A stretch of 39,903 bases of DNA, from UHGV virus genome UHGV-0192709; one strand, 5' to 3'. The notes beneath the pieces are model-generated. The model ran no database searches, was not told the DNA's origin, and saw nothing but the letters and a program-made list of their open reading frames with translations. This DNA comes from a virus. Below are positions 11,142-29,885 of the stretch, piece by piece. A program made the translations under genes and the position numbers. The first letter of the stretch is position 1, and each line of letters begins with the position of its first letter.

Positions 11142-12470
11142 ATGGCCAACACAAAATATGAAGAAGAACTGGAAAAGGCGAAGCTTCAGCCGCAGCAAGC
11201 GCAGCAGCAGAGCCAGCAGCAGGCGGGCCTGCTGGGCGTGAGCGATTCCACGCGGCAGAACCTGGGGGCGCTGGCGCAGGGCTACACGCCCAGCCAGAAC
11301 GTGACCGCCGCGCAGGAATACCTCAAGGGCCTGGCCAGCAAAAAGCCGGGGGATTATTCCTCCCAATACGCGCCGCAGATTACGCAGCTTTACGACAAGA
11401 TGATGAACCGCGGCCAGTTTAAATACGACATGGACGCGGATCCGCTGTGGCAGCAATACAAAAACAGCTACATGCAGACGGGGCGGCAGGCCATGCAGGA
11501 CACGGTGGGCACGATGGCGGCGCTGACGGGGGGCTACGGCAACAGCTACGCCCAGGCGGCGGGGCAGCAGCAATACCAGCAATATCTGCTGGGGCTGCAC
11601 GACCAGCTTCCGGCGCTGCAGCAGCAGGCCTTTGCGCGATACCAGCAGGAGGGGCAGGACATACAAAACCAGCTTTCCATCGCCCAGGCGCTGGACGATA
11701 CGGCCTATGGCCGGTACCGGGACGCGCTGGGCGACTGGAAAAACGAGCGGAACTACGCAAAGAGCGACTACGAGAGCGAATACGAGCGGGAATACAACGA
11801 TTATCTGAACCGGCTGAATTACTGGCAGCAGCAGGGGCAGCTTGAAAACCAGGACTATTGGAAGGGCCAGGAATACGGCCTTTCCCGGGAGCAGATGGAC
11901 ATTACCAAGGGACAATTCGAAATGCAGCGGCGAAGCGACGCATTCGAGCGGGCGCTGACCATGCTGCAATTGGGCATGACCCCGGGGGCCGATCTGCTGG
12001 CGGCGGCGGGACTGACCGACGCGGATGTGAAGGCCTATCTGGCGCTGCGGCAGGGCACGGGCGGCGGAGGCGGCGGAAACGGAGCCGGGAAAGAAACCAA
12101 TCGTTCGATGGGCAGGGCAACATGGCTGAAAAATACGGCTAACGCGCTGGCCGCAGCCGGGGTAAGCCCCGGGGACAACGTGGAGGCGGCGGGCATGCCC
12201 AAGGGAACATACCAGGCGTATCTTGACGGGCAGAAAGACTGGATGGTGCTGGATCCGCAAGAATACGCGAAGAAAAAACAAGAAAATTCGACCGGATGGA
12301 CGGGCGGCGGGACGGAATTGAAAAAGCAGACGCGGCTGACGGACACGCTGGGGGCGATTAAGAGCATCGCAACAAAGAGGACATTTGACAACGCAAGGAA
12401 TCAAACGACGGAGCAGGATTATGAAAACGCCTATGCGGAGCTGCTGAAAGAAAAGAAAAAGGGGAAATAA
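11142..12470 (+). CDS. Internal virion / ejection protein (Q/Y/A-rich)
   Basis: AALTGGYGNSYAQAAGQQQYQQYL motif, low-complexity helical sequence; precedes the giant gene. Confidence 0.75.
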   Translation: MANTKYEEELEKAKLQPQQAQQQSQQQAGLLGVSDSTRQNLGALAQGYTPSQNVTAAQEYLKGLASKKPGDYSSQYAPQITQLYDKMMNRGQFKYDMDADPLWQQYKNSYMQTGRQAMQDTVGTMAALTGGYGNSYAQAAGQQQYQQYLLGLHDQLPALQQQAFARYQQEGQDIQNQLSIAQALDDTAYGRYRDALGDWKNERNYAKSDYESEYEREYNDYLNRLNYWQQQGQLENQDYWKGQEYGLSREQMDITKGQFEMQRRSDAFERALTMLQLGMTPGADLLAAAGLTDADVKAYLALRQGTGGGGGGNGAGKETNRSMGRATWLKNTANALAAAGVSPGDNVEAAGMPKGTYQAYLDGQKDWMVLDPQEYAKKKQENSTGWTGGGTELKKQTRLTDTLGAIKSIATKRTFDNARNQTTEQDYENAYAELLKEKKKGK

Positions 12471-12472
12471 CC

Positions 12473-15400
12473 ATGAAAAGCTATTTTCGGGAGGCCATGA
12501 AGCAGAACCTTGAGCGGGACGCCAAGGAAAAAAAGGCGCAGCAGAGCAATCAGGCCAGCGCGCCCAGGACGAAGCGGAACCTGGTTGCGCCGTTTAAAAC
12601 GGATTACCTGAACCAGAAATATAAGGACGCGGTGGCCGACCTGGGGCAATATACCAGCCCCAGGAACGCCATTGAGGAAGCATACAAAGCCGTATCGACC
12701 ATGCGCGATACGGTGTTTGCGTATGACGGCGCGGCCCGGGAGAAGGACGCGAAGGCGGCAATTCTGGCCGGGGAAAAGCAGATGAACAAATCCCTGCGGG
12801 AGAGCCGGACGAGATTCCAGCTGGAGGGGAAAAGCTACGGCGAAATGATCGCCCTGGCGAAGAGCAAGGGCTACCGGGACGCGCGGGAAAACCTGCAGGA
12901 CATGGCCAGGCGCGGCCTGGTGAGCGACCAGCAGGCCGCGATGGCGATTGCGTCGGGCGACGAGGGCGGCACGGAGGCGGAGCGGCATGTGCAAAGATGG
13001 GCGGACGCGCTGAAAAGCTACAAGGGGAACGCCCAGGACTATTTTTCCATTTATCAAGACCCGGCGAAGGCCATGCAAGCCCTGCGGGACGACAAGACCA
13101 TGCGGGCCATGACCTTTGAGCAGCAGGACATTCTGACGGAGCTTTTGCAGGAATCGGGCGCGCTGGACAGCTTTGATACCGCTGAGCAGGAAAAACTGGC
13201 GGCGGACTACGCGGCGCGGGAAATGACCTATATGCAGGAGGCCATGCGCAGCCTGCAGAACCAGGAGGAATGGCAGGACATTATCGACTACGGCCGGAAA
13301 AACACGCTGGAGGGCGCGCGGGAATGGGCGGAAAGCGAACCGGAAAGCCAGGAGGCGAAGAATAACCTGTATTTCGCGGAAAAAAAGGCGGAGTATGACG
13401 CGATTGCTCCCGGAGAGGACGATTACGACGCGAACAACGGGGACGGGCTTTATCAGTACATCAACGGGAACAAGCAGATTATCGACGAAGCGAACAGTGT
13501 GCTCGGCATGCCGGGCGGAATCGACCCTTGGTATAAATACCGGTACATGACGGATGACCAGGTGCGGAAATACAACGCCATTGTGAAGCAAAAGGGGCTG
13601 GCGGAGGGAAAGAAATACCTGGACGAATATCTTTCCTATTCGCTGAACGAGCGGCAAAACGAGGAAGCGAAGCGGGCGATGTACGACGCGGCCCAGAGCG
13701 GGACGGCGGGCGCGGTGATGGCCAGCGCGGCCAGCGTTCCCATGAGCCTTGCCCGGGGCCTCGGCTACGCGGACGTGCTGCTGCAAAAGCTGACGAACCG
13801 GCTGACCGGAAGCGAAAGGCCGGTGGATTACAACAGGAGCATGAACCAGATCGGCGCGGGCGCGGACGCGGCGCGCCAGGGCGTGATGGACAGCGTGGAC
13901 TGGAATATTAACGTGCTGGGCCGTGATGTGGACGTATTCGACTTTTTATACGGGACGGCCATGAGCGGCGCGGACAGCCTGGCGGCGGGCGCGTTCGGCC
14001 CGGCGCTGGGCGCGGTGATCCTGGGATCCTCGGCGGCGCAGAGCACCATGCAGGACGTGCACGAGCGGGGCGGAAACGACGGGCAGGCGCTGGTTTCCGG
14101 CCTGGCGGCGGGCATTTTTGAAGAACTATTTGAAAAAGTGAGCCTGGGGAACCTCTTTGCGGACCTTGGGAGCATGAATAAGGAGGGGCTGAAAGGCGCG
14201 CTGAAGATGATCGCCCGGGAGACGGGGGTTAATTTCAGCGAGGAATTTTTTACCGAGGTGGCCAACGTAGCCTTCGACGAAATTTATATGGGCGACCTCT
14301 CGGAAGCGACGAAAAAATACGAATACTACAGGAGCCTAGGCCTAACCGACGAGCAAGCCAGCGCGAAGATGGCAAGCGATATCGGCGCGCAATTCCTGGA
14401 GGCGGGCCTGGGCGGCGCTGTGATGGGCGCGGGATTCGGCGCGATGGGGGCCGTAAACGCCACGAGAAACAACAGCAAGGTAACGAAGCAGGCGGGAGAT
14501 AACATCATCCAGGCGGGCACGCGGGAGCGGCTGAAAAAAATCGCCTCGGCCTTCGGGGAGGACAGCGAGGCGGGGCGGCTGGCGAAAACATATAACGCGG
14601 AAACGGCGGAAAGCAAGGAAACGGGAAAACTCTTCCGGGCGGTGCTGGAGGAAATGCCGCAGGGCGAACAGCGGACGGTGAAATTCCGGGAGGATATGAT
14701 GGGCCTGGTGGCGGCGGAGGTGGCGGAAAGGCTGCTGGAGCTGGGCGAAAACGAAGGAGACGCGGCAGAAGCGGCCATGGCCGTAACCGCCCTGTGGGCC
14801 AACGCGGAGCTGGAGGCGGCGGATTATCTGGCGCTGTCCCGGAGCGACCATGCAATTGAACTGGCGGAGCAGCTGCTAGGCATGGAAGCGGCGGACGCAA
14901 GCCAGAGCGCGGAGAGCGCGGCCAACGCGGAACAGGACGCATGGGACGCGGAGCAGGATATAACGACCGAAGCCCAGGCGGGGGAAAACGCGGCGGACGC
15001 GGCGGCGCGGGAGCTGGAGGCGGAAGGGCCCGACAGGCGGACGGAGAAAAGGGAAGCGCACGCGAGAATCAGCCTGGACGACGAGGGCGGCGTGAAAATC
15101 CAGGAGAACGGAAGGGAGATCGACCTGGACGAAAGCGCGATGACCGACAGCCAGAAAACCCTGGTGCTGGACAGCCAGGGCATGCAGCCCGAAACGGCGG
15201 CGGCTATGCGCGGCGCATACGCAGAAGGCGGGGACGTATCCGCCCATGAATACGGGATAGGCTTTAAACGCGCTGTAGAGGCCTATAAGCGCGGGGAAAC
15301 GCCAACGGGCGTTTATGCCGGGGCGCTGACGGAAACGCAGCTGGAGGCCGCCAGAGCGGCAGCGGAGGGGGAAAACGCCAGGGCGCGGGAGCAGACCCTG

Positions 15401-18400
15401 CAGGCGGCCCAGGAAACGGCCCAGGCGCTGGGCCTGCGGGCGCTGACGGAGGAAACGAAAAACGAGGCGGGGGCGGTGATCGCCAGCGCCAAGGGCAGAC
15501 CGGACGAATTCCAGGCGGCGCAGATCAAGCTGGTGGACAGGGTGGCCAAGGAGCTGGGCGTGCAGGTGCGCCTGTACGACACGCTAAAAAGCCCGGGCGG
15601 CGCGAAGGCGAACGCCAGCTACGCCCAGGGGACGAACATTATTAACCTGGCCCTGGACGCGGACAAGGGGCTGCTGACCAAGGCGGTAAGCCATGAACTG
15701 TATCACTTTGCAAAGGAATGGAACGCGGAGGGCGCGGAGCGGCTTTCCGCGCTGGTGCTGGGCACGCTGGAGGGGAAGGAAGGCTATGACCTGAAAGCGC
15801 GGATCCAGGAGAAAATAGCGGAATACGAGGAAGGCGGCGTGATACTGACCGAGGCGGCGGCCCTGGAGGAGATTGTGGGCGACGGGCTGCTGGACTACAT
15901 CGGGACGGAGGAGAACTTTTCCGCCCTGGCCAAGGCGGATAGGAGCCTTGCGGAGCGGATTAAAAGCTGGGTATCGGAAATGGCGGGGCGGATCCGGAGG
16001 CTGATGGGGGAACTGACAGGGAAGGAAGCGGAGGCGCTGCGGGACGACCTGAGCTATTTAGAGGCCCGGGACAAGATGATGCAGGGGGTGCTGCAAAAAG
16101 CGGCGGAGAACCTGCGGGACGCGCAGCGGGGCATGTATGGCAGCGCAAAAACGGACACGGCGGTAAAGGAATACCAGGCGGAAATGCGAAACGCCATGAA
16201 CGCGCAGGAGCGGGAGGAGGCGCTGAACGGGCTGGTATCCAAAATGATGGCGCGGACGCAGCGCGCCTATTTCGCCGCGCATCCGGAAGCCGATCTGACC
16301 GCGACGATGGAGAAAATGAAGCGCGGGCTGCTTGCATACGGGCAGGGGAAAACGGATGTGGAGACGGCGCTGAAGAAGGAGGGTCTTTCCGCGCCCCGGG
16401 CGGGCACGCACACGATGTATGTGATGAGCTACATCGGGCAGCAGGCGGCGCTGCTGAAGGAGAAGGGGCAGAAATACAGCATAGAAACCTTTGAAAAGAA
16501 CGGGCGCACCTTCTCCTATGTAAAGGCCGAGCGGCAGGTGATTACCGGGGACGACCCGCAAGCCTGGGGCAAGCAGGTGGAGAATTACATCAATTCCGAA
16601 ATCCGGAAGGGAAAGGACGTAACCTTCTACACGGAAAACGGCGTGCCGCTGACCGTTACCAAGGATACGGCGGGGAAGGCGACTTACTGGAACACGGATC
16701 AATCGGGAAACAGGGTATCTGAAAAAGAATATGGAATTAAACTAAGGATAGAATCTCACATTGATGAAGCGGCACAGGTATCCAAGGGCAAGGGAAATCA
16801 GAAAATAGACAAAAAAAGCCACTCGTTTGCAAATAACGGGTGGAACTACAGAAAAGCGTTCTTTGAAGATTTTGATGGAAATTATTATTCGTTTAAAATT
16901 TCGGTAGGGAAAAATGGGAAAATAAACACAATTTATAACGTGAACAACATAAAAAAAGAAGCAGAATCACCGAACACGCTCAAAGGCGCTCAGCCGAAAA
17001 AAACGACCGTCGGACTTACTGCTTCCACTTACAGTATATCCGAAGACAGCGAAAATGTCAACGGAAAATTCAGCCTGTCCAGCGAGGTGGAGGAGCAAAA
17101 GAATTTAATCGCGGTGCACAACCTGACGGAGGAGAAGCTGGAAAAGGCGCTGGAGCTGGGAGGATTCCCCATGCCCAGCATTGCCATTACGAAGGCGAGC
17201 ATGGGGCACCAGAATTTTGGGGATATTTCGCTGGTATTCGGGCGGGAAACCATCGACCCGAAGCAGAACAGAAAGAACCTGGCCTACAGCGCGGACGCAT
17301 GGACGCCGACCTTCCCGCAGCTTGATTATAAAATCGACGACGCGAAGGAGAGGGCGCTGGTGGATTGGGCGCGGAAGCTGGAGATACCGCAGAAATACAG
17401 AAACGGGGCGGTAAGCTTTGTAAGCGACCTGGAGGATCAGGCCATGCGATACGGCGGGGAAAGCGGCCTGGTGAAGGCGGCGGAGGATAAACCGGGCATG
17501 CAAGCGGCATACCTGGCGGAAAAGGGCGAAACGATTGAAATTGAAAAACGAACCCAGGCGAAGGAAAGCGGCTTTTCGCCGGAAACGGTGGAGAAGGCGA
17601 AACGGGTGATCGACCTGATGGGCGGGGACGTGCAGACCGTCCGGAAAATGCCGTTCAATCAGATTTGGGACGAATACGGAGAGCAGCTGAAGGAAATCTT
17701 TCCTTCGCTGCAAAAGGGACGCTTTAACCTGCAGCGAATCATGAGCATTGCGGTGCGGGCCGCAGAATACGCCGGGAGCGGAACGGAAACCGTACAGGTG
17801 GACGATTACGCGGCGACGGAGCGGAAGATGCGCGAAAAAATCGACCAAGCGGACTTCCGGGCATGGCTCGAGGAAAAGCTGAAGGGCGTGATCGCGGGAA
17901 AGGGCGTGTATAACAACAGGGAGATTTTTACAGCCAGCGGAAACAGGCGCAGCTTTGACCAGCTGCACTGGGAGCCGACGCTGGAGAACATCGCAAAGGC
18001 GATGGCGGGACAGCGGGCGGGAAACAGCAAAAATGTGACGGGCTTTCACGGGGTGAAAACGCTGCGGGCGGCCACGGCGGAAACCTTCAAGAGCGTGGAG
18101 CAGATGCACGCCCGGGAAAACCGCCTGCAGGCAATGACGCAGGAGCAGCAGGACGCGCTGGCAGAGCGCTTAAGCGACCGCCTGATGAACCTGATGGGAA
18201 AAATCCTGGAGCAGGGGAAGCAAACCTCGGGGAACAGCCTGATGGACATGGATACCGTAGGCGAAATTTTGACGGAGATCGGAGAAAAGGCGTACACGGA
18301 GGAAAGCATTCAACGGGATTTTGCAAAATACAGCAGGCCCATCGACCAGGCGACGGCGGGAGAAATCAAGGCCCTGCTGGACGAAATCTCGCAAATGCCG

Positions 18401-21400
18401 GTGAATATGTTCGAGGCGAAGCCGGAGCGGGCCGTGGGCTTTAACGAGGTGCGGGCGGCTATCGTGCCGGACAGCGCGAACCAGGAAATCGTTGATGCGC
18501 TGGAGGGATACGGCGTTGAGGTGATCCGCTACGCGGAGGGCAATGAAGAGCAGCGGCTGGAGGCGCTGAACAGCATGGACGCGCTGAAATTCAGCGTGGC
18601 GGAGGAGCAAAACGGCCAGACGCAGCTTCCGGACGTGACGGAGGACGCGGAGCTTTCCGCCCAGGCGGCGGGCGACGAGGACATGCGGGCGGCGCTGATG
18701 CTGGTGCAGCGGCTGTACGACACGGCGAGGAACGGCGAGGGCTATCTGGAGCTGAACGGGCGCGGGGCCATTCAGGCGGGAGACTGGCAAAAGCGCGTGG
18801 AGGGTATTCGGGACAGGCTGCTGAGCGAAACGGGCAGCGGCTACGGCAAGGGCGCGCTGACCAGGCGGCTGAACACGCTGTTCGCGGCCATGGACGAGGG
18901 AACGCAGAGCGTGGGCGATTTGCTGATGTACGCCCGGGAAACGGGGAAAAAGCTGCTGGAAAATGCGGACTGGGCCAAGGGCGTGCAGGACGAAGCCACG
19001 GCGGAGGCGCTGCGCATTTTGAAAACGAACAAATTCTACCTGACCGAGGACATGAAAAGCGAGATTCGTGGAACCTTCGGCTCGGTGCAGAATTTCATGA
19101 GAAAGAACTTTGGCAAGCTGGCGATTCGGGTCAAAGCGGAAAACGGGAACGCGGGGGCGAACGTATCCCTGGCGGAGGTGTGGACGAAAAGCCTTTCCGA
19201 CCTGATGCCGGGAACCTTTACGGCGGACGCGACGGAGGCGGACATGCCCATTATCCTGAACGCATGGCTGGAAACCGTGCAGGGCAGGGAGAACAGCAAT
19301 TATTACGGCAACAACATTCCGCAGATGGAAACGGACATTGGGCTGCAATTGATGCTGGACTATTACAACCTGCCGGGGGCGCTGAAAGCCCCGAAACAAA
19401 ATGAATATTTGATAAAGGAATATGAAGCGAGGATCAAAAAAATTAGGAAGGAATACAAAAAGAAGAGAGAAAAGGAGCTTATCGCAAGGAGAGATATCGA
19501 AATAGAGAAAAAAACGCTGGGCGAAATCTCCCGAAATGTGAAATACCTGAACACGCGCATTGTGAACGCAAGCGACGCCCGCCATGTGCCGGACGCGCTG
19601 AAGGGCGCTGTGACCCGATTTATGGACAGCTTTTTGAACGATACCAGCGTATTTGACCGGGAGCGGCTGCGGGAACTGCGGGACGCATACGCGCGAATGC
19701 GGGAAACGGGGGTCAACGAGGACAGCCAAGCGGCATGGGCCTACGACGACGATATTAAAAACATGCTGGAGCGGATGGAAAAGACCATCGCCGGGCGCGG
19801 GCTTTCGCAGCTGACGCAGGACGAATTGGAAATGGTGCGCGACGTGGTGGGCAACCTGAAAAAAATGGTGGTGGAGGGGAACGAAATCACCATTAACGGA
19901 AGAAAGCAGACGGTGGATCACGCGGGAAATATGGCCCTGACGGAACTGAAGCGCAAGGACAACATAAAAAATGAAAAGCTGACCAACACGATCTACAAGA
20001 CCACCACCCCCTTCTATTTCTTCAAGAACCTGGGCGGGGAATTTAAAACGCTGTTCGACGACATGCGAAAGGGCCAGGGCAAATGGTCGGGCATGATGGG
20101 CAAGGCCAAGGAATACCTGGACGCGCAATTAAAAGAGCACCATGTGAACGATTGGCTGTGGACGGGGGACAACCTGGTGTTTACCACCGACCGGGGGGAA
20201 AAGATCGAGCTGGATAAGGGGCTGGCCATGGCGCTGTACGCCACCTGGAAGCGCGAAACGCTGAACAAGGCGCAAAACGCCAATCACTTGCGCATGGGCG
20301 GATTTATGTATCCCAAATGGGCGCAGGAAAAAATAAAGACCCAGGGGGTGGACGTGAACAGGCCCCACGCGCTGACGGCGGGGGACATGGCGAAAATTGA
20401 AGGCTATCTGGGAAAGAGCGGCATAGGCTTTGTGGACGGGATGGTGAAATACCTTTCCAACGACATGGCGCAGGCGGGGAACGAGGTTTCCATGGCGCTG
20501 TTCGGCTATCGCAAATTTACGGAGGGCTATTATTTCCCCTACGCCAGCAGCCGGGAATATATCGCCACGGACGTAACCCGGGGGCCCGGCGGCGAAAGCC
20601 AGGAAAAGACGCTGAAAAGCTGGGGCGCGGCGAAAAAGCTGACGGAGCGGGCGAACAACCCTATCATGATCGATAGCTTTATCGACGTGTGGGCGAAGCA
20701 CGTGAACCAGATGGCCACCTATTCCAGCTTTACCGTGGCCATGGACAACATGAACCGCCTATATAACTACAAAACGGGCGTGATGGAGGACGCAACACCG
20801 GAGAGCGTGCGGGTGGAGCTGAAGCGGGCCTTTGGGGAGGGCGCGGAAAAATACATCGCCAACCTGATGAAGGATATCGCGGGCGGCATGCGGCCAGACG
20901 AACGAGCAGGAATGGGGAAAACGCTGAGCCTGTTTAAAAAAGGCGCGGTTTCGGCCAGCGCGAGCGTAGCGATCCAGCAGCACAGCGCGATTATGCGGGC
21001 CATGGCGCTGATTAGCCCCAAATATTTTGTGGACGCGCCGAAGAACCCCATGAAAAGCTGGCGGGAACTGACGGAATACAGCGGCGTGGCGCGGGTGAAG
21101 GAAATGGGGCGCTTTGACACCATGACGGGCCAGAGCAGCACGGAATGGCTGACCAGCGACGTGAAGGATGAAAGCGCCTGGAAGCGGGCCGCAGATTTCG
21201 CGGACAACCTGGCCGGATGGGCCCCGGAAAAGGCCGACCAGGTGACCTGGGGAAAACTGTGGGAAACGGTGAAAAAGGAGCAGGAAGCGGCGGGCGTGGA
21301 CATTACCACCAAGGAGGGCCTGCAAAAATGCGGGGAGCGCTTTGACGAGGTGGCGGACGCGACGCAGGTATACGACAGCGTGCTATCCAAGAGCGAGATC

Positions 21401-22549
21401 ATGCGCGGGCAAACAATTGCGGCCAAGATGATCACAGCCTTTATGGCGGAGCCCACGGTATCCTTCAACCTGCTGGCGGACGCGATAATGCACATGGGGG
21501 ATACGACCTATCAGGGGCGCGTGACGGTGAAGCGGGCGGCGGCGGCATACACGGCCAACGTGATTTTAAACGCCATGCTAAAGGCGCTGATAACGGGCTT
21601 CCGGAAGGACGACGACAACGAGAAAACGGCGGTGGAGCGGTATGTGGCCGAGGTGGCGGAAAACATCATGAGCGATATGAACCCGCTGACGCTGATTCCC
21701 TTGGTGCAGGACGCAGTGAACATCTTCCAGGGCTACGACGTGAAGCGGACGGATATGACCGTGGTTTCCGACCTATACGAAGGCGTAAAAACGCTGTTTG
21801 ACGAAAACAAGAGCCTGGAGCAGAAGGTGGAAAAAGGGCTGGGCGGCATTGCGGCCATTTTCGGCGTGCCGCTGCGGAACATTGCGCGGGACGCGCGGAC
21901 GCTTATGAACCTGTTTAACAGCAGGCCCATCAGCGAAACGGACGCTTCGGCCATTCGCTACGGCGTGCTGGAGGGGATCCCGGGCATGCCGGGCATCTTT
22001 ACCCCCTACGAGAGCAAGAACGCGGCCTACTATCAGCGCATGGCCAACGCATACTTTGCCGACGACGCAGCGGAATACGAGAACCTGCGCCGCTATATGA
22101 CCACCCGCAAGGGGGCCACGGAGAACGCCGTGAGCACGGGCGCGCGAAACGCGGTGAAGGGCATGCTGCTGGCGGGGAAGATCGACGAAGACCAGGCCCT
22201 GCAATACCTGATGGACATGGACGAAAAGAGCGCTTCGGACGCTTACTGGATGATTCAGGAATGGATGGGCGGGGACGATTACTCAAAATACGACGACTTT
22301 TACGAAGCCGTGAACACGGGCAAGGGATTGCAGGCGGCCATTCAGAGCTATACGGAAAACGGCGTGGAGAAAAAGACGCTGGCCTCCCGGATTACGGCGG
22401 AATACAAGGAGGAGTATATTCGCCTGTACAAGGCGGACAAGCGGAAATTCGCCGAATTGCAGGCGCGGCTGCTGACGGCCTACGCGGCGCTGGGATACGA
22501 CCGGGAGAAGAAGAAAAAGGACATGGAGGCATGGCTGAAGGAGAAATAA
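12473..22549 (+). CDS. Giant (3358 aa) polyvalent/ejected virion protein with zincin-like HExxH, putative nuclease and ART-like modules
   Basis: Uninterrupted ORF; SHELYH...EEIVGD at aa ~1074; modules bounded by KYSI/KFSL/KFSV; low-GC insert at about 16690-17040. Confidence 0.85.
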   Translation: MKSYFREAMKQNLERDAKEKKAQQSNQASAPRTKRNLVAPFKTDYLNQKYKDAVADLGQYTSPRNAIEEAYKAVSTMRDTVFAYDGAAREKDAKAAILAGEKQMNKSLRESRTRFQLEGKSYGEMIALAKSKGYRDARENLQDMARRGLVSDQQAAMAIASGDEGGTEAERHVQRWADALKSYKGNAQDYFSIYQDPAKAMQALRDDKTMRAMTFEQQDILTELLQESGALDSFDTAEQEKLAADYAAREMTYMQEAMRSLQNQEEWQDIIDYGRKNTLEGAREWAESEPESQEAKNNLYFAEKKAEYDAIAPGEDDYDANNGDGLYQYINGNKQIIDEANSVLGMPGGIDPWYKYRYMTDDQVRKYNAIVKQKGLAEGKKYLDEYLSYSLNERQNEEAKRAMYDAAQSGTAGAVMASAASVPMSLARGLGYADVLLQKLTNRLTGSERPVDYNRSMNQIGAGADAARQGVMDSVDWNINVLGRDVDVFDFLYGTAMSGADSLAAGAFGPALGAVILGSSAAQSTMQDVHERGGNDGQALVSGLAAGIFEELFEKVSLGNLFADLGSMNKEGLKGALKMIARETGVNFSEEFFTEVANVAFDEIYMGDLSEATKKYEYYRSLGLTDEQASAKMASDIGAQFLEAGLGGAVMGAGFGAMGAVNATRNNSKVTKQAGDNIIQAGTRERLKKIASAFGEDSEAGRLAKTYNAETAESKETGKLFRAVLEEMPQGEQRTVKFREDMMGLVAAEVAERLLELGENEGDAAEAAMAVTALWANAELEAADYLALSRSDHAIELAEQLLGMEAADASQSAESAANAEQDAWDAEQDITTEAQAGENAADAAARELEAEGPDRRTEKREAHARISLDDEGGVKIQENGREIDLDESAMTDSQKTLVLDSQGMQPETAAAMRGAYAEGGDVSAHEYGIGFKRAVEAYKRGETPTGVYAGALTETQLEAARAAAEGENARAREQTLQAAQETAQALGLRALTEETKNEAGAVIASAKGRPDEFQAAQIKLVDRVAKELGVQVRLYDTLKSPGGAKANASYAQGTNIINLALDADKGLLTKAVSHELYHFAKEWNAEGAERLSALVLGTLEGKEGYDLKARIQEKIAEYEEGGVILTEAAALEEIVGDGLLDYIGTEENFSALAKADRSLAERIKSWVSEMAGRIRRLMGELTGKEAEALRDDLSYLEARDKMMQGVLQKAAENLRDAQRGMYGSAKTDTAVKEYQAEMRNAMNAQEREEALNGLVSKMMARTQRAYFAAHPEADLTATMEKMKRGLLAYGQGKTDVETALKKEGLSAPRAGTHTMYVMSYIGQQAALLKEKGQKYSIETFEKNGRTFSYVKAERQVITGDDPQAWGKQVENYINSEIRKGKDVTFYTENGVPLTVTKDTAGKATYWNTDQSGNRVSEKEYGIKLRIESHIDEAAQVSKGKGNQKIDKKSHSFANNGWNYRKAFFEDFDGNYYSFKISVGKNGKINTIYNVNNIKKEAESPNTLKGAQPKKTTVGLTASTYSISEDSENVNGKFSLSSEVEEQKNLIAVHNLTEEKLEKALELGGFPMPSIAITKASMGHQNFGDISLVFGRETIDPKQNRKNLAYSADAWTPTFPQLDYKIDDAKERALVDWARKLEIPQKYRNGAVSFVSDLEDQAMRYGGESGLVKAAEDKPGMQAAYLAEKGETIEIEKRTQAKESGFSPETVEKAKRVIDLMGGDVQTVRKMPFNQIWDEYGEQLKEIFPSLQKGRFNLQRIMSIAVRAAEYAGSGTETVQVDDYAATERKMREKIDQADFRAWLEEKLKGVIAGKGVYNNREIFTASGNRRSFDQLHWEPTLENIAKAMAGQRAGNSKNVTGFHGVKTLRAATAETFKSVEQMHARENRLQAMTQEQQDALAERLSDRLMNLMGKILEQGKQTSGNSLMDMDTVGEILTEIGEKAYTEESIQRDFAKYSRPIDQATAGEIKALLDEISQMPVNMFEAKPERAVGFNEVRAAIVPDSANQEIVDALEGYGVEVIRYAEGNEEQRLEALNSMDALKFSVAEEQNGQTQLPDVTEDAELSAQAAGDEDMRAALMLVQRLYDTARNGEGYLELNGRGAIQAGDWQKRVEGIRDRLLSETGSGYGKGALTRRLNTLFAAMDEGTQSVGDLLMYARETGKKLLENADWAKGVQDEATAEALRILKTNKFYLTEDMKSEIRGTFGSVQNFMRKNFGKLAIRVKAENGNAGANVSLAEVWTKSLSDLMPGTFTADATEADMPIILNAWLETVQGRENSNYYGNNIPQMETDIGLQLMLDYYNLPGALKAPKQNEYLIKEYEARIKKIRKEYKKKREKELIARRDIEIEKKTLGEISRNVKYLNTRIVNASDARHVPDALKGAVTRFMDSFLNDTSVFDRERLRELRDAYARMRETGVNEDSQAAWAYDDDIKNMLERMEKTIAGRGLSQLTQDELEMVRDVVGNLKKMVVEGNEITINGRKQTVDHAGNMALTELKRKDNIKNEKLTNTIYKTTTPFYFFKNLGGEFKTLFDDMRKGQGKWSGMMGKAKEYLDAQLKEHHVNDWLWTGDNLVFTTDRGEKIELDKGLAMALYATWKRETLNKAQNANHLRMGGFMYPKWAQEKIKTQGVDVNRPHALTAGDMAKIEGYLGKSGIGFVDGMVKYLSNDMAQAGNEVSMALFGYRKFTEGYYFPYASSREYIATDVTRGPGGESQEKTLKSWGAAKKLTERANNPIMIDSFIDVWAKHVNQMATYSSFTVAMDNMNRLYNYKTGVMEDATPESVRVELKRAFGEGAEKYIANLMKDIAGGMRPDERAGMGKTLSLFKKGAVSASASVAIQQHSAIMRAMALISPKYFVDAPKNPMKSWRELTEYSGVARVKEMGRFDTMTGQSSTEWLTSDVKDESAWKRAADFADNLAGWAPEKADQVTWGKLWETVKKEQEAAGVDITTKEGLQKCGERFDEVADATQVYDSVLSKSEIMRGQTIAAKMITAFMAEPTVSFNLLADAIMHMGDTTYQGRVTVKRAAAAYTANVILNAMLKALITGFRKDDDNEKTAVERYVAEVAENIMSDMNPLTLIPLVQDAVNIFQGYDVKRTDMTVVSDLYEGVKTLFDENKSLEQKVEKGLGGIAAIFGVPLRNIARDARTLMNLFNSRPISETDASAIRYGVLEGIPGMPGIFTPYESKNAAYYQRMANAYFADDAAEYENLRRYMTTRKGATENAVSTGARNAVKGMLLAGKIDEDQALQYLMDMDEKSASDAYWMIQEWMGGDDYSKYDDFYEAVNTGKGLQAAIQSYTENGVEKKTLASRITAEYKEEYIRLYKADKRKFAELQARLLTAYAALGYDREKKKKDMEAWLKEK
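16951..17026 (-). ncRNA. Putative 76-nt structured antisense RNA nested in the giant gene
   Basis: Has its own promoter; 5' GAAGCAG pairs with 3' CUGCUUC followed by U7; the internal hairpins need G-U pairs available only on the minus strand. Confidence 0.6.
17033..17061 (-). promoter_or_regulatory. Intragenic antisense promoter TTGACA-17-TATACT
   Basis: Plus strand AGTATA at 17033-17038 and TGTCAA at 17056-17061, with an exact 17-bp spacer. Confidence 0.75.
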
Positions 22550-28253: not shown

Positions 28254-28282
28254 TTGACAAACCGGCTGCGGAATGATAAGAT
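28254..28282 (+). promoter_or_regulatory. Sigma70 promoter TTGACA-17-TAAGAT with extended -10 TG
   Basis: TTGACA 28254-28259, TAAGAT 28277-28282, AT-rich upstream tract. Confidence 0.75.
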
Positions 28283-28287
28283 AAATA

Positions 28288-28384
28288 CGTCGGCGGGGCA
28301 ACCTGCTGTTGTCAGCGGGGAAACCCGCTGTGGATTGAAAAGAAAATGCCCGGAAAACAGAAAAGCCCATCAAAGGGCTTTTTT
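28288..28384 (+). ncRNA. Putative ~95-nt small RNA or leader with twin GNRA hairpins and a terminator
   Basis: CGGCGGG-GCAA-CCUGCUG and CAGCGGG-GAAA-CCCGCUG; terminator AAAAGCCC/GGGCUUUUUU. Confidence 0.55.
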
Positions 28385-28421
28385 GTGTAATGCAATAATC
28401 GATCTGGGAGGGCATGCGGAA

Positions 28422-29885
28422 ATGAAAAGAAGCAATCCACGAACTGAACTGGAAAAAGCGCTGCAGGACGCAGGATTTACAAAAACAGAATTTGCGGAAA
28501 AGATCGGCGTTAAATACGGAAGCGTTATGGGATGGTGCAGCGGAGAAGTAACTCCAAATGCAAAAAACATAATAAAAATAACGGAGGTACTTGGATTTTG
28601 TCCAATAGTGCAGCAAGCGCAAGAGGACGAAACGCCCATGAAAAAAGCGCTGCGGGAAGCGGGGATTACTCCGCGAGAATTCGCGAAAAAACTCGGAGTA
28701 ACCGACGATTCTGTTTATAATTGGCTGAATGAGAAGAAAGCGCCATCTTATAAATCTGCGAGAAAAATTGAAGAAATTCTCGGATTTTGCCCAATAGTGC
28801 GGCGAGTGCGAGAGCAAACGCAAGAGCAGGAGCAAGATGGAGAACCGCCCATAAAAAAAGCGCTGCGGGAAGCGGGGATTACTCCGAAAGAATTTGCGAA
28901 AAAACTCGGGACATACAGCAATGTGGTTTATGGCTGGATGAACGGGAAGAAAGCGCCGGGGTATAAATTTTCGGCAAAGATCGAAGAAATTCTCGGCTTT
29001 TTGCCGGAAGGGTGCCAGGTAAGCAAACACAAAAACGGAAAACCAACGGAAAGAGGGGAAATCCTCCGGAAAATGCGAACGGACGCGGGGCTAAGCTACA
29101 GCGAAATTGCGCGTAGGATCGGAAATACAACGAGTTTCTCGTCTGTATCCGTTGCGGAAAAGGACGCGAACGCATCCGTAAGTTTATATTTGATGAGACG
29201 TGTGGCAAAAGCGTGCGGCGTGTCCCTGGCAGACTATGGAATAGATGACAAGCCGAAAAAAGCGCTTAGATATGCGGAAATTGGCATTTTGGTTAAAAAA
29301 TGGCGCGAAGAAACAGCGGAATATAGCGTGCATGGAGGGCTAAAAAGAGCCAACGACGCTTTGGGGCTATCAAAAAGTTGTTTAGCTAGCATAGAGAGAG
29401 GAGCATCTATTCCGAGCAAGAAACTTATAGAACAAATGATAAAAATCTATGGATCGCCGCCGCCGGAACTTTGGGAAAAATTTGATGCGGCGAACGCGCT
29501 GAAGGGAAAGTGGATAAAAAGTGAAAAACGCACAAAAAAGAAAAGAAGCCTGCAAGATAAAATTTTATATCAATACAAAAAGGGAAGGAGCATAAGGACT
29601 ATTGGAAATAAAATTGGCATTGGCTGGCAGAAGGTAACAAAAATCCTTGTATCAAACGGTATTTGCCCGAATGAAACTTCTGCGGCTGTCCAGCGGCTAT
29701 CCAACCAGGGGAAAACAAAAGAAGAGATTTGCGAAGAGCTTAAAATAAGTAAAAAGGTTTACGACGCATACATGCCATATACAAAATGCGAATACCGGTC
29801 GGAAAACAGAACAAAAAATGCAATGGAAATTGAGAAGTGCAGGAAACGGAAAAAAGAAAGGGAGATGAAAAAAATAACAGATTGA
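28422..29885 (+). CDS. Low-GC multi-HTH protein (about 5 XRE-type plus 2 further HTH-like units), moron
   Basis: KKALREAGITP.EFAKKLG....VY.W.N.KKAP repeated three times; LRKMRTDAGLSYSEIARRIG; LGLSKSCLASIERG. GGGAGG RBS before ATG 28422. Confidence 0.82.
   Translation: MKRSNPRTELEKALQDAGFTKTEFAEKIGVKYGSVMGWCSGEVTPNAKNIIKITEVLGFCPIVQQAQEDETPMKKALREAGITPREFAKKLGVTDDSVYNWLNEKKAPSYKSARKIEEILGFCPIVRRVREQTQEQEQDGEPPIKKALREAGITPKEFAKKLGTYSNVVYGWMNGKKAPGYKFSAKIEEILGFLPEGCQVSKHKNGKPTERGEILRKMRTDAGLSYSEIARRIGNTTSFSSVSVAEKDANASVSLYLMRRVAKACGVSLADYGIDDKPKKALRYAEIGILVKKWREETAEYSVHGGLKRANDALGLSKSCLASIERGASIPSKKLIEQMIKIYGSPPPELWEKFDAANALKGKWIKSEKRTKKKRSLQDKILYQYKKGRSIRTIGNKIGIGWQKVTKILVSNGICPNETSAAVQRLSNQGKTKEEICEELKISKKVYDAYMPYTKCEYRSENRTKNAMEIEKCRKRKKEREMKKITD

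Follow-up and report, generated by a model that had tools for sequence, protein, structure and literature searches.

The giant polyvalent protein gene of a temperate phage carries, on the strand opposite to its reading frame, a host-type promoter and a predicted 76-nt structured RNA, placed directly behind a module of predicted BECR fold. The sequence, UHGV virus genome UHGV-0192709, was analysed over its full 39,903 nucleotides (the window). Comparison of homologous sequences suggests, with a probability that we put at roughly 55%, that this RNA would be the cognate inhibitor, or RNA immunity factor, of a virion-delivered, predicted BECR-fold RNase encoded upstream on the opposite strand. A role as antitoxin or decoy, raised in the preliminary description of this DNA, is the best candidate for its function. 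The window copy taken alone has a fold only modestly beyond chance (−26 kcal/mol, z −2.37; 3 of 200 shuffles were as good); it is the homologues that make the case for the RNA decisive.

The predicted minus-strand RNA and its homologues

The 3358-aa reading frame is preceded by terminase, portal, capsid and internal virion protein genes and is followed by tail protein, integrase and repressor genes. Its HELYH (HExxH peptidase) motif, its PBECR5 module and these virion-gene neighbours are those by which a polyvalent protein is recognized. A proteomic report lists the phi24B polyvalent protein among those detected in virions (10.64898/2026.04.10.717836), which, together with the gene order in the window, supports packaging of the polyvalent protein. 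As had been noted in the preliminary description, the module is low in GC, at 0.44–0.52 in 16401–17200 against ∼0.6 in the surroundings. K[FY]S repeats bound modules in the window (17066–17090 and about 18500), and a close relative, P0004, is without the PBECR5 module between two KFS...EEQ repeats; such repeats may mark joints for recombination or processing. Between the lysis genes and integrase (28254–29885) lies a low-GC gene for a 543-aa protein with at least five HTH_3 repeats, which looks like an accessory regulator.

The two boxes of the sigma-70-type promoter (Table 1) are separated by 17 nt and match the consensus at 11 of 12 positions. This is the best of four sites in 12,000–22,000, where the others score 9. 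The promoter-like site claimed earlier is present, and SI and VN codons do spell its −10 and −35 boxes. Computed from G17026 to the U-tract, the predicted RNA folds as it had been described: an 8-bp closing stem (P1; 17026–17019/16964–16957) is followed by a short inner stem and by the hairpins P2 and P3, the latter likely to be the protein-binding element of the RNA. Lying on the opposite strand of the reading frame, the RNA is complementary to the mRNA; it sits 4.5 kb into the frame, behind the domain, and overlaps neither the translation start nor the leader, an overlap by which cis-antisense regulators and type I toxin–antitoxin RNAs are recognized. An Rfam search at the locus gave nothing near the gathering score, a tRNA search of the window found none, and tRNA and Rfam searches in 20 loci returned true tRNAs only.

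Table 1. Features of the polyvalent gene and of the predicted minus-strand unit in the window
Feature	Position	Strand	Basis or remark
Polyvalent protein gene, 3358 aa	12473..22549	+	ORF in virion module of temperate phage
LPD3-like, predicted BECR-fold domain (aa 1348–1494)	16514..16954	+	Language-model features, weak Pfam, predicted structure
PBECR5 domain (aa 1532–1745), Pfam match; next module past the RNA	17066..17707	+	No antisense unit behind it
−35 box TTGACA	17056..17061	−	Coding-strand codons N-V-N; kept in homologues
−10 box TATACT	17033..17038	−	Coding-strand codons S-I
Predicted 76-nt RNA: P1 closing stem, variable hairpin P2, conserved hairpin P3, U-tract	16951..17026	−	Fold and comparison
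P2 hairpin, U7 loop	16991..17009	−	Sequence and loop vary among homologues
P3 core hairpin GCGC-CUUUGA-GCGU	16976..16989	−	Family consensus GGY-CUUUGA-RCC
Closing-stem 3′ strand and U-tract, predicted terminator	16951..16964	−	Overlaps final codons of LPD3-like domain

The promoter leaves a peptide footprint in the protein, defined here as [SNTDR][IVML]-x6-[VG][NK], which is kept in 87 of 117 distinct protein linkers as compared with 96 of 1651 control windows (5.8%). Single-sequence searches for loci found none and alignment-based searches succeeded; 133 DNA loci, found by the domain alone, gave 49 distinct non-redundant linkers. A promoter scoring at least 9.5 is present in 44 of these 49, and 36 of the 44 promoter-bearing RNAs have a U-rich 3′ tail. 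The antisense strand folds more stably than the sense strand in 36 of 44, with 114 G-U pairs against 69, while z is below −2 in all 44 RNAs, a value inflated by trimming them to the outer helix. A P3-type hairpin was found in 31 of the 44 (16% in shuffles), and the loop is CUUUGA in 25. Seven of ten pairs change on both sides, with none of 500 shuffles as high and all slid controls lower, in a set of 21 aligned RNAs that were chosen for having P3 and with shuffles that ignore kinship. RNAalifold on a MAFFT alignment retained P3 only; because P1 and P2 misalign, the covariance model is nearly sequence-only, and it finds one copy in the window. The protein frame in which P3 is read is split 13/11/7 among the 31 RNAs, and its coding-strand word appears as AQR (33), GSK (31) or LKG (13) among the 117 linkers. 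Since the P3 core shows covariation and occurs in each of the three protein frames, the comparison indicates that selection is acting on the RNA, at the nucleotide level. The U7 loop, to which a tRNA-like character had been attributed for its 7 nt, proved variable within a hypervariable P2 and is incidental; the conserved part is P3.

A second class of RNA, GAGCGCC-hairpin-GAAGAGCC, accounts for 10 of the 44, and 3 of 44 belong to neither class. On the domain tree the two classes require 4–5 changes, against a shuffled mean of 10.7. This alternation of RNA classes counts against a tight co-evolution of the loop with the domain. The core is doubled in a few RNAs (L027, L119).

Likenesses to tRNA were considered against 34 distinct tRNAs, taken from 30 of the 48 tRNA places in genome G001. 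In the class 2 RNAs of L036, L043, L085 and L056, AGAGCG-CC...GG-AAG resembles tRNA positions 21–46 (the D-stem/anticodon-stem junction), a word likeness seen in 3 of the 34. CUUUGA corresponds to positions 32–37 of tRNA-Gln(UUG), with nucleotide 38 missing, in 1 of the 34. Strict anticodon mimicry is not supported: the probability of such a match by chance is 0.045 if the loop is considered and 0.12 if the arm is, the variants CUAUGA, CAUAGA and CUUGA and class 2 do not fit, and in 10 of 44 RNAs a hairpin takes the place of the apex. The likeness of P3 to the tRNA-Gln(UUG) anticodon arm is kept as a lead. The cores gave no full match to E. coli rRNA.

The upstream domain and other carrier families

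The segment aa 1348–1494 gave no Pfam match above cut-off. Matches to LPD3 (PF18798) are weak, occurring in 9 of 46 family members (best E 4e-4), the window domain having none; kinship of the window domain with LPD3 is indicated by Atlas language-model features (0.92) and by predicted structures (TM 0.55–0.58). Profile comparison with LPD3 aligned unrelated segments (probability 21%), profile comparison of the domain family with MuF-C gave no similarity, and no sequence relatives of the domain were found in PDB. The family comprises 129 long proteins and 659 clusters at 50% identity.

A structure model built from a 46-sequence alignment (pLDDT 91.5; a first model, pLDDT 56, was discarded) has helices followed by three long C-terminal strands, the BECR criterion being an N-terminal helix and then a four- to five-stranded sheet. 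The best match to a solved structure was 7m5f (Z 5.1, rmsd 3.6, 86 aligned residues), with Z below the tool's caution level of 8; 6cp9 (Z 4.4), 5i4q (Z 3.9) and then BrnT, ParE and RelE were further matches, with several BECR rows at Z 3.4–4.4. The top matches are BECR CDI toxins, of which 6cp9 and 5i4q are described as tRNases (PMC9086364). Foldseek against PDB with the domain model gave none at E ≤ 0.001, and ToxN, CptN and TenpN are absent among the Pfam and fold matches listed for the domain. The preliminary description had placed an RNase-fold module, BECR/PBECR-like, upstream of the RNA: the LPD3-like character and the CDI toxin matches, modest in Z, could fit this, but the Pfam PBECR5 match lies after the RNA.

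Across the 46-sequence alignment H1429, D1431, E1432, K1423, Y1459, Y1488 and N1489 are invariant; K1402 is present in 45 of 46 and T1486 in 32 of 46, as aligned positions rather than superpositions on a solved active site. The catalytic criterion for BECR RNases is a His or Lys in the helix and a C-terminal Thr or Ser. The invariant His, Asp, Glu, Lys, Tyr and Asn suggest that the domain is an enzyme, and nuclease activity is our prediction from the model. In 35 of 46 sequences a Phe stands where the Kp342-type Lys-x-x-Tyr motif has its Tyr, so that RNA binding may be all that the domain does.

A count over 329 kb of the polyvalent reading frames, with redundant loci kept, gave 77 promoters on the antisense strand and 20 on the sense strand. 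Forty-three of the 77 lie behind the window's domain family and many others behind MuF-C, LPD3 and PBECR3 (Pfam names), the unit being positioned 80–200 nt behind the domain; locus L036 contains at least five units within 5.4 kb. Counted by domain, an antisense promoter was found behind 39 of 50 in the window's family, and behind MuF-C in 41 of 56, LPD3 in 6 of 8, PBECR3 in 2 of 3 and unnamed BECR-like clusters in 4 of 5, 4 of 4, 1 of 1 and 1 of 1, fractions that, the window's family apart, are inflated because promoters had led to the queries for LPD3, PBECR3 and the unnamed clusters and to most of the MuF-C loci. Behind non-carrier domains there were none in 38 (ADP-ribosyltransferase 0/6, metallopeptidase 0/15, LPD23 0/9, LPD38 0/3, ParB 0/2, PBECR5 0/3), and phage Mu gp30 has no unit. 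As PBECR5 and Mu gp30 are without it, the unit is not universal.

The core of MuF-C RNAs is GGC-AAUUG(G/C)A-GCC, nearly always in a single protein frame (LQLP). In a reciprocal test, viral contigs were searched with promoter plus core. With GGYCTWWGARCC (core A), 30 distinct hits were obtained, of which 7 follow the window's domain and none MuF-C; of the other 23, most fall in short frames, and they have the look of chance hits, with a broken member among them. With GGYRATYGSAGCC (core B), MuF-C was present in 55 of 73 hits and the window's domain in none; five of the other 18 are in long frames without a MuF-C domain upstream. Physical linkage would by itself account for part of such family-specific pairing. 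The five (L190, L216, L230, L240 and L256) have MuF-C-type RNAs at ∼1501–1580, some stacked behind another unit or duplicated; they look like orphan RNAs, by analogy with orphan immunity genes. A MuF-C search of three genomes gave no match, and a generic scan for promoter plus AGAAG returned mostly ordinary promoters, with 13 of 122 matches antisense in long frames.

Loops that recur in other families, with few members, are CAUGUAAAG, AUUUGA and UCUUUGA (L036:3694, L129:1005, L337:3011, L109:3662). Antisense units with neither a recognizable BECR-like domain upstream nor core A or B were seen at L010:1687 and 1810 and at L122:2843. In L128:728–6782 a domain and RNA unit lie in a protein that ends with an Ntox50 toxin domain, and a second Ntox50 protein adjoins. 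Fragments of polyvalent genes with domain and RNA units were also seen among housekeeping genes or by tRNA genes in bacterial contigs (L021:2378–3139, L029:2213–3445, L104:4869–6119, L110:4611–5984, L124:4326–7672, L109:3147–8498, L101:979–4491, L131:4191–5618); these may be captured cassettes or prophage remnants, found by domain search and with mis-assembly possible.

A sister RNA in Stx-type phages

A MuF-C domain is found in 188 phage records, most of them from Stx phages. The closing stem of the phi24B unit is 12 bp long, its core is GGGC-AAUUGAA-GCCC and z is −4.15; the promoter of the unit is weak (TTGCGA-17-TATTTT) and was missed by the consensus scan. A unit of the same kind is present in Pasteurella phage Pmp11, and a MuF-C unit also lies inside ECs1242 of the E. 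coli Sakai prophage Sp5 (L447:4024–12405). The phi24B unit and its predicted start were defined before the Sakai transcription data were consulted. The dRNA-seq table of Sy et al. (2020; PMC7547250) gives an antisense start at 1301472 (−), with an enrichment of 24.07, inside ECs1242. The sequence upstream of it is the phi24B-type promoter, and +1 is the A before the stem, as predicted, the coordinate offset having been verified on a second row of the table. For ECs1242 the same table has further entries, namely another antisense start, at 1300538, and two sense starts within the gene. An Hfq-crosslinked minus-strand peak, EcOnc36, is listed in five datasets by Tree et al. (2014; PMC4104026); the peak, 1301433–1301515, covers the first 40 nt of the Sp5 RNA and extends 43 nt upstream. 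In the parts of the literature covered, no function was found for the Sp5 RNA or EcOnc36, which is catalogued in a row without size or stability entry. The RNA class is expressed in the lysogen, by this Sp5 member of the sister family rather than by the window's copy. The earlier proposal of a portable cassette, nuclease-like domain plus cognate RNA, is strongly supported by coupling to BECR-like domains only, family-specific cores, multiple cassettes per gene and the Sp5 start site.

Candidate functions and known systems

A fixed family-specific loop, a stable scaffold and constant adjacency to one kind of domain argue for a protein–RNA pair; as the complementarity of a cis-antisense RNA does not depend on its sequence, we infer a protein partner for the fixed loop. 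The host-type promoter active in the lysogen and the orphan copies favour protection. If the RNA is an inhibitor, host polymerase would constantly make it from the prophage, and the closing stem would stabilize it and present P3, which the domain would bind at its RNA-binding face. Binding would silence the domain during synthesis and packaging of the giant protein, and the RNA would shield lysogens from the same domain delivered by a related phage; in a new host cell, which lacks the RNA, host RNA would be the target of the injected domain. A protein immunity gene cannot fit between the modules of one 10-kb frame, so the antidote would be overprinted in the linker, and domain and RNA would consequently be shuffled together as one cassette.

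Next in rank, and in our judgement unlikely, is that domain and RNA are paired in the producer cell, packaged and injected together as a ribonucleoprotein, the RNA being a cofactor, activator or decoy against host defences and not an inhibitor. The cognate coupling would be the same, the catalytic signature of the domain is weak and a stable closed fold would suit packaging; protection is a better fit for the orphan RNAs, which stand without a domain, and for a host-type promoter that works in a lysogen, and the invariant residues suggest an enzyme. Somewhat more doubtful still is a regulator of the cis-antisense or Hfq type, where the RNA would pair with the late mRNA, or its transcription would interfere, silencing leaky toxic modules in the lysogen or excluding superinfecting phage. 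Complementarity to the mRNA is full, and both main loops contain a YUNR word, which we take to be a U-turn and to count for regulation of this kind. The Hfq crosslinks over the Sp5 unit fit a base-pairing RNA too, antisense reads are far above sense reads in the ECs1242 data, and STnc6030 of BTP1 provides a precedent (PMC7067206). Such regulation leaves unexplained why the loop is fixed and family-specific amid diverging flanks, why the unit is absent behind other likely toxic domains (ADP-ribosyltransferase among them), why the 5′ and 3′ ends are paired and why the RNA lies downstream of the domain to be silenced.

A guide function had also been raised, P3 serving as the handle and P2 as the variable targeting arm of a programmable nuclease. 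A fixed handle and a variable arm are indeed present, but the hypervariable P2 is a closed hairpin with a loop of 3–9 nt, is missing in L018 and L020 and offers no variable single-stranded spacer, which makes a guide highly improbable. Hardly credible, and largely refuted, is that linker codons spell promoter and hairpin by accident: in its favour, the z of the window copy is only −2.4 and the MuF-C core keeps nearly always to one frame, but footprint conservation, the three frames and covariation of P3, the excess of antisense promoters and the mapped start site of the Sp5 sister all speak against it.

Beyond the cognate inhibitor itself we offer, tentatively and at a little under even odds, a more general proposal. 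Polyvalent proteins may hold an RNA immunity code, in which injected RNase modules would each have their own overprinted antidote with a family-specific hairpin, phages would collect orphans against the nucleases of rivals, and bacteria would keep captured cassettes; this would be polymorphic toxin–immunity with RNA as the immunity, from phages of gut Clostridia to Stx phages. PBECR, LPD3 and MuF-C domains, long predicted and so far untested, would gain a concrete partner, and the low-complexity linkers of polyvalent proteins, with the recurring peptides SI-x6-VN, AQR and LQLP, would be explained as RNA genes. Overprinting offers a possible route to make and package a nuclease without self-poisoning, and suggests an extra layer of immunity between phages. 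Annotation passes over the entire RNA class, despite the large domain families involved.

In the literature covered, namely freely accessible papers and bioRxiv articles apart from their supplements, we met no account of such RNAs as a class. Iyer et al. (2017; PMC5512222) treat the same protein class and domain types (PBECR, MuF-C, LPD3); in the main text of that paper 'antisense', 'noncoding' and 'small RNA' have 0 occurrences and no RNA partner is described. EcOnc36 and the 1301472 start in ECs1242 (PMC4104026, PMC7547250) represent a MuF-C-type member of the class, starting exactly as predicted, of the sister family and not the window's. The nearest antisense precedent is STnc6030 of the Salmonella prophage BTP1, likewise an antisense RNA in late virion genes that is expressed in the lysogen; it is 786 nt long and modelled as base-pairing, with no domain-specific core in the account given (PMC7067206). 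MuF polymorphic toxins and CDI BECR toxins share with our cassettes a predicted delivered nuclease, a cognate protective gene directly downstream and modular exchange, but there, as described, immunity is a small protein ORF, whereas in our cassettes each internal module would have an overprinted antisense RNA in that role (PMC5576092, PMC9086364).

With type III toxin–antitoxin systems (ToxIN, CptIN, TenpIN and phage pseudo-ToxI; as outlined in PMC5086642) what is shared is the matching of a small RNA to a family of endoribonucleases, a proposed direct inhibition of protein by RNA, and family specificity. Membership of that type, to which the preliminary description had likened the cassette, fails on gene layout and repeats. 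In type III the antitoxin lies upstream on the same strand, followed by a terminator and the toxin, whereas here the RNA is antisense, downstream and inside the frame, with its own promoter; a tandem-repeat antitoxin processed by the toxin is replaced by a single stem-closed unit, its core doubled in only a few cases; the type III pseudoknot has no predicted counterpart, the folding tools used being those for nested structures only; and the BECR-like domain belongs to a virion protein. By analogy, the window unit would act like a type III antitoxin and sit like the immunity gene of a polymorphic toxin.
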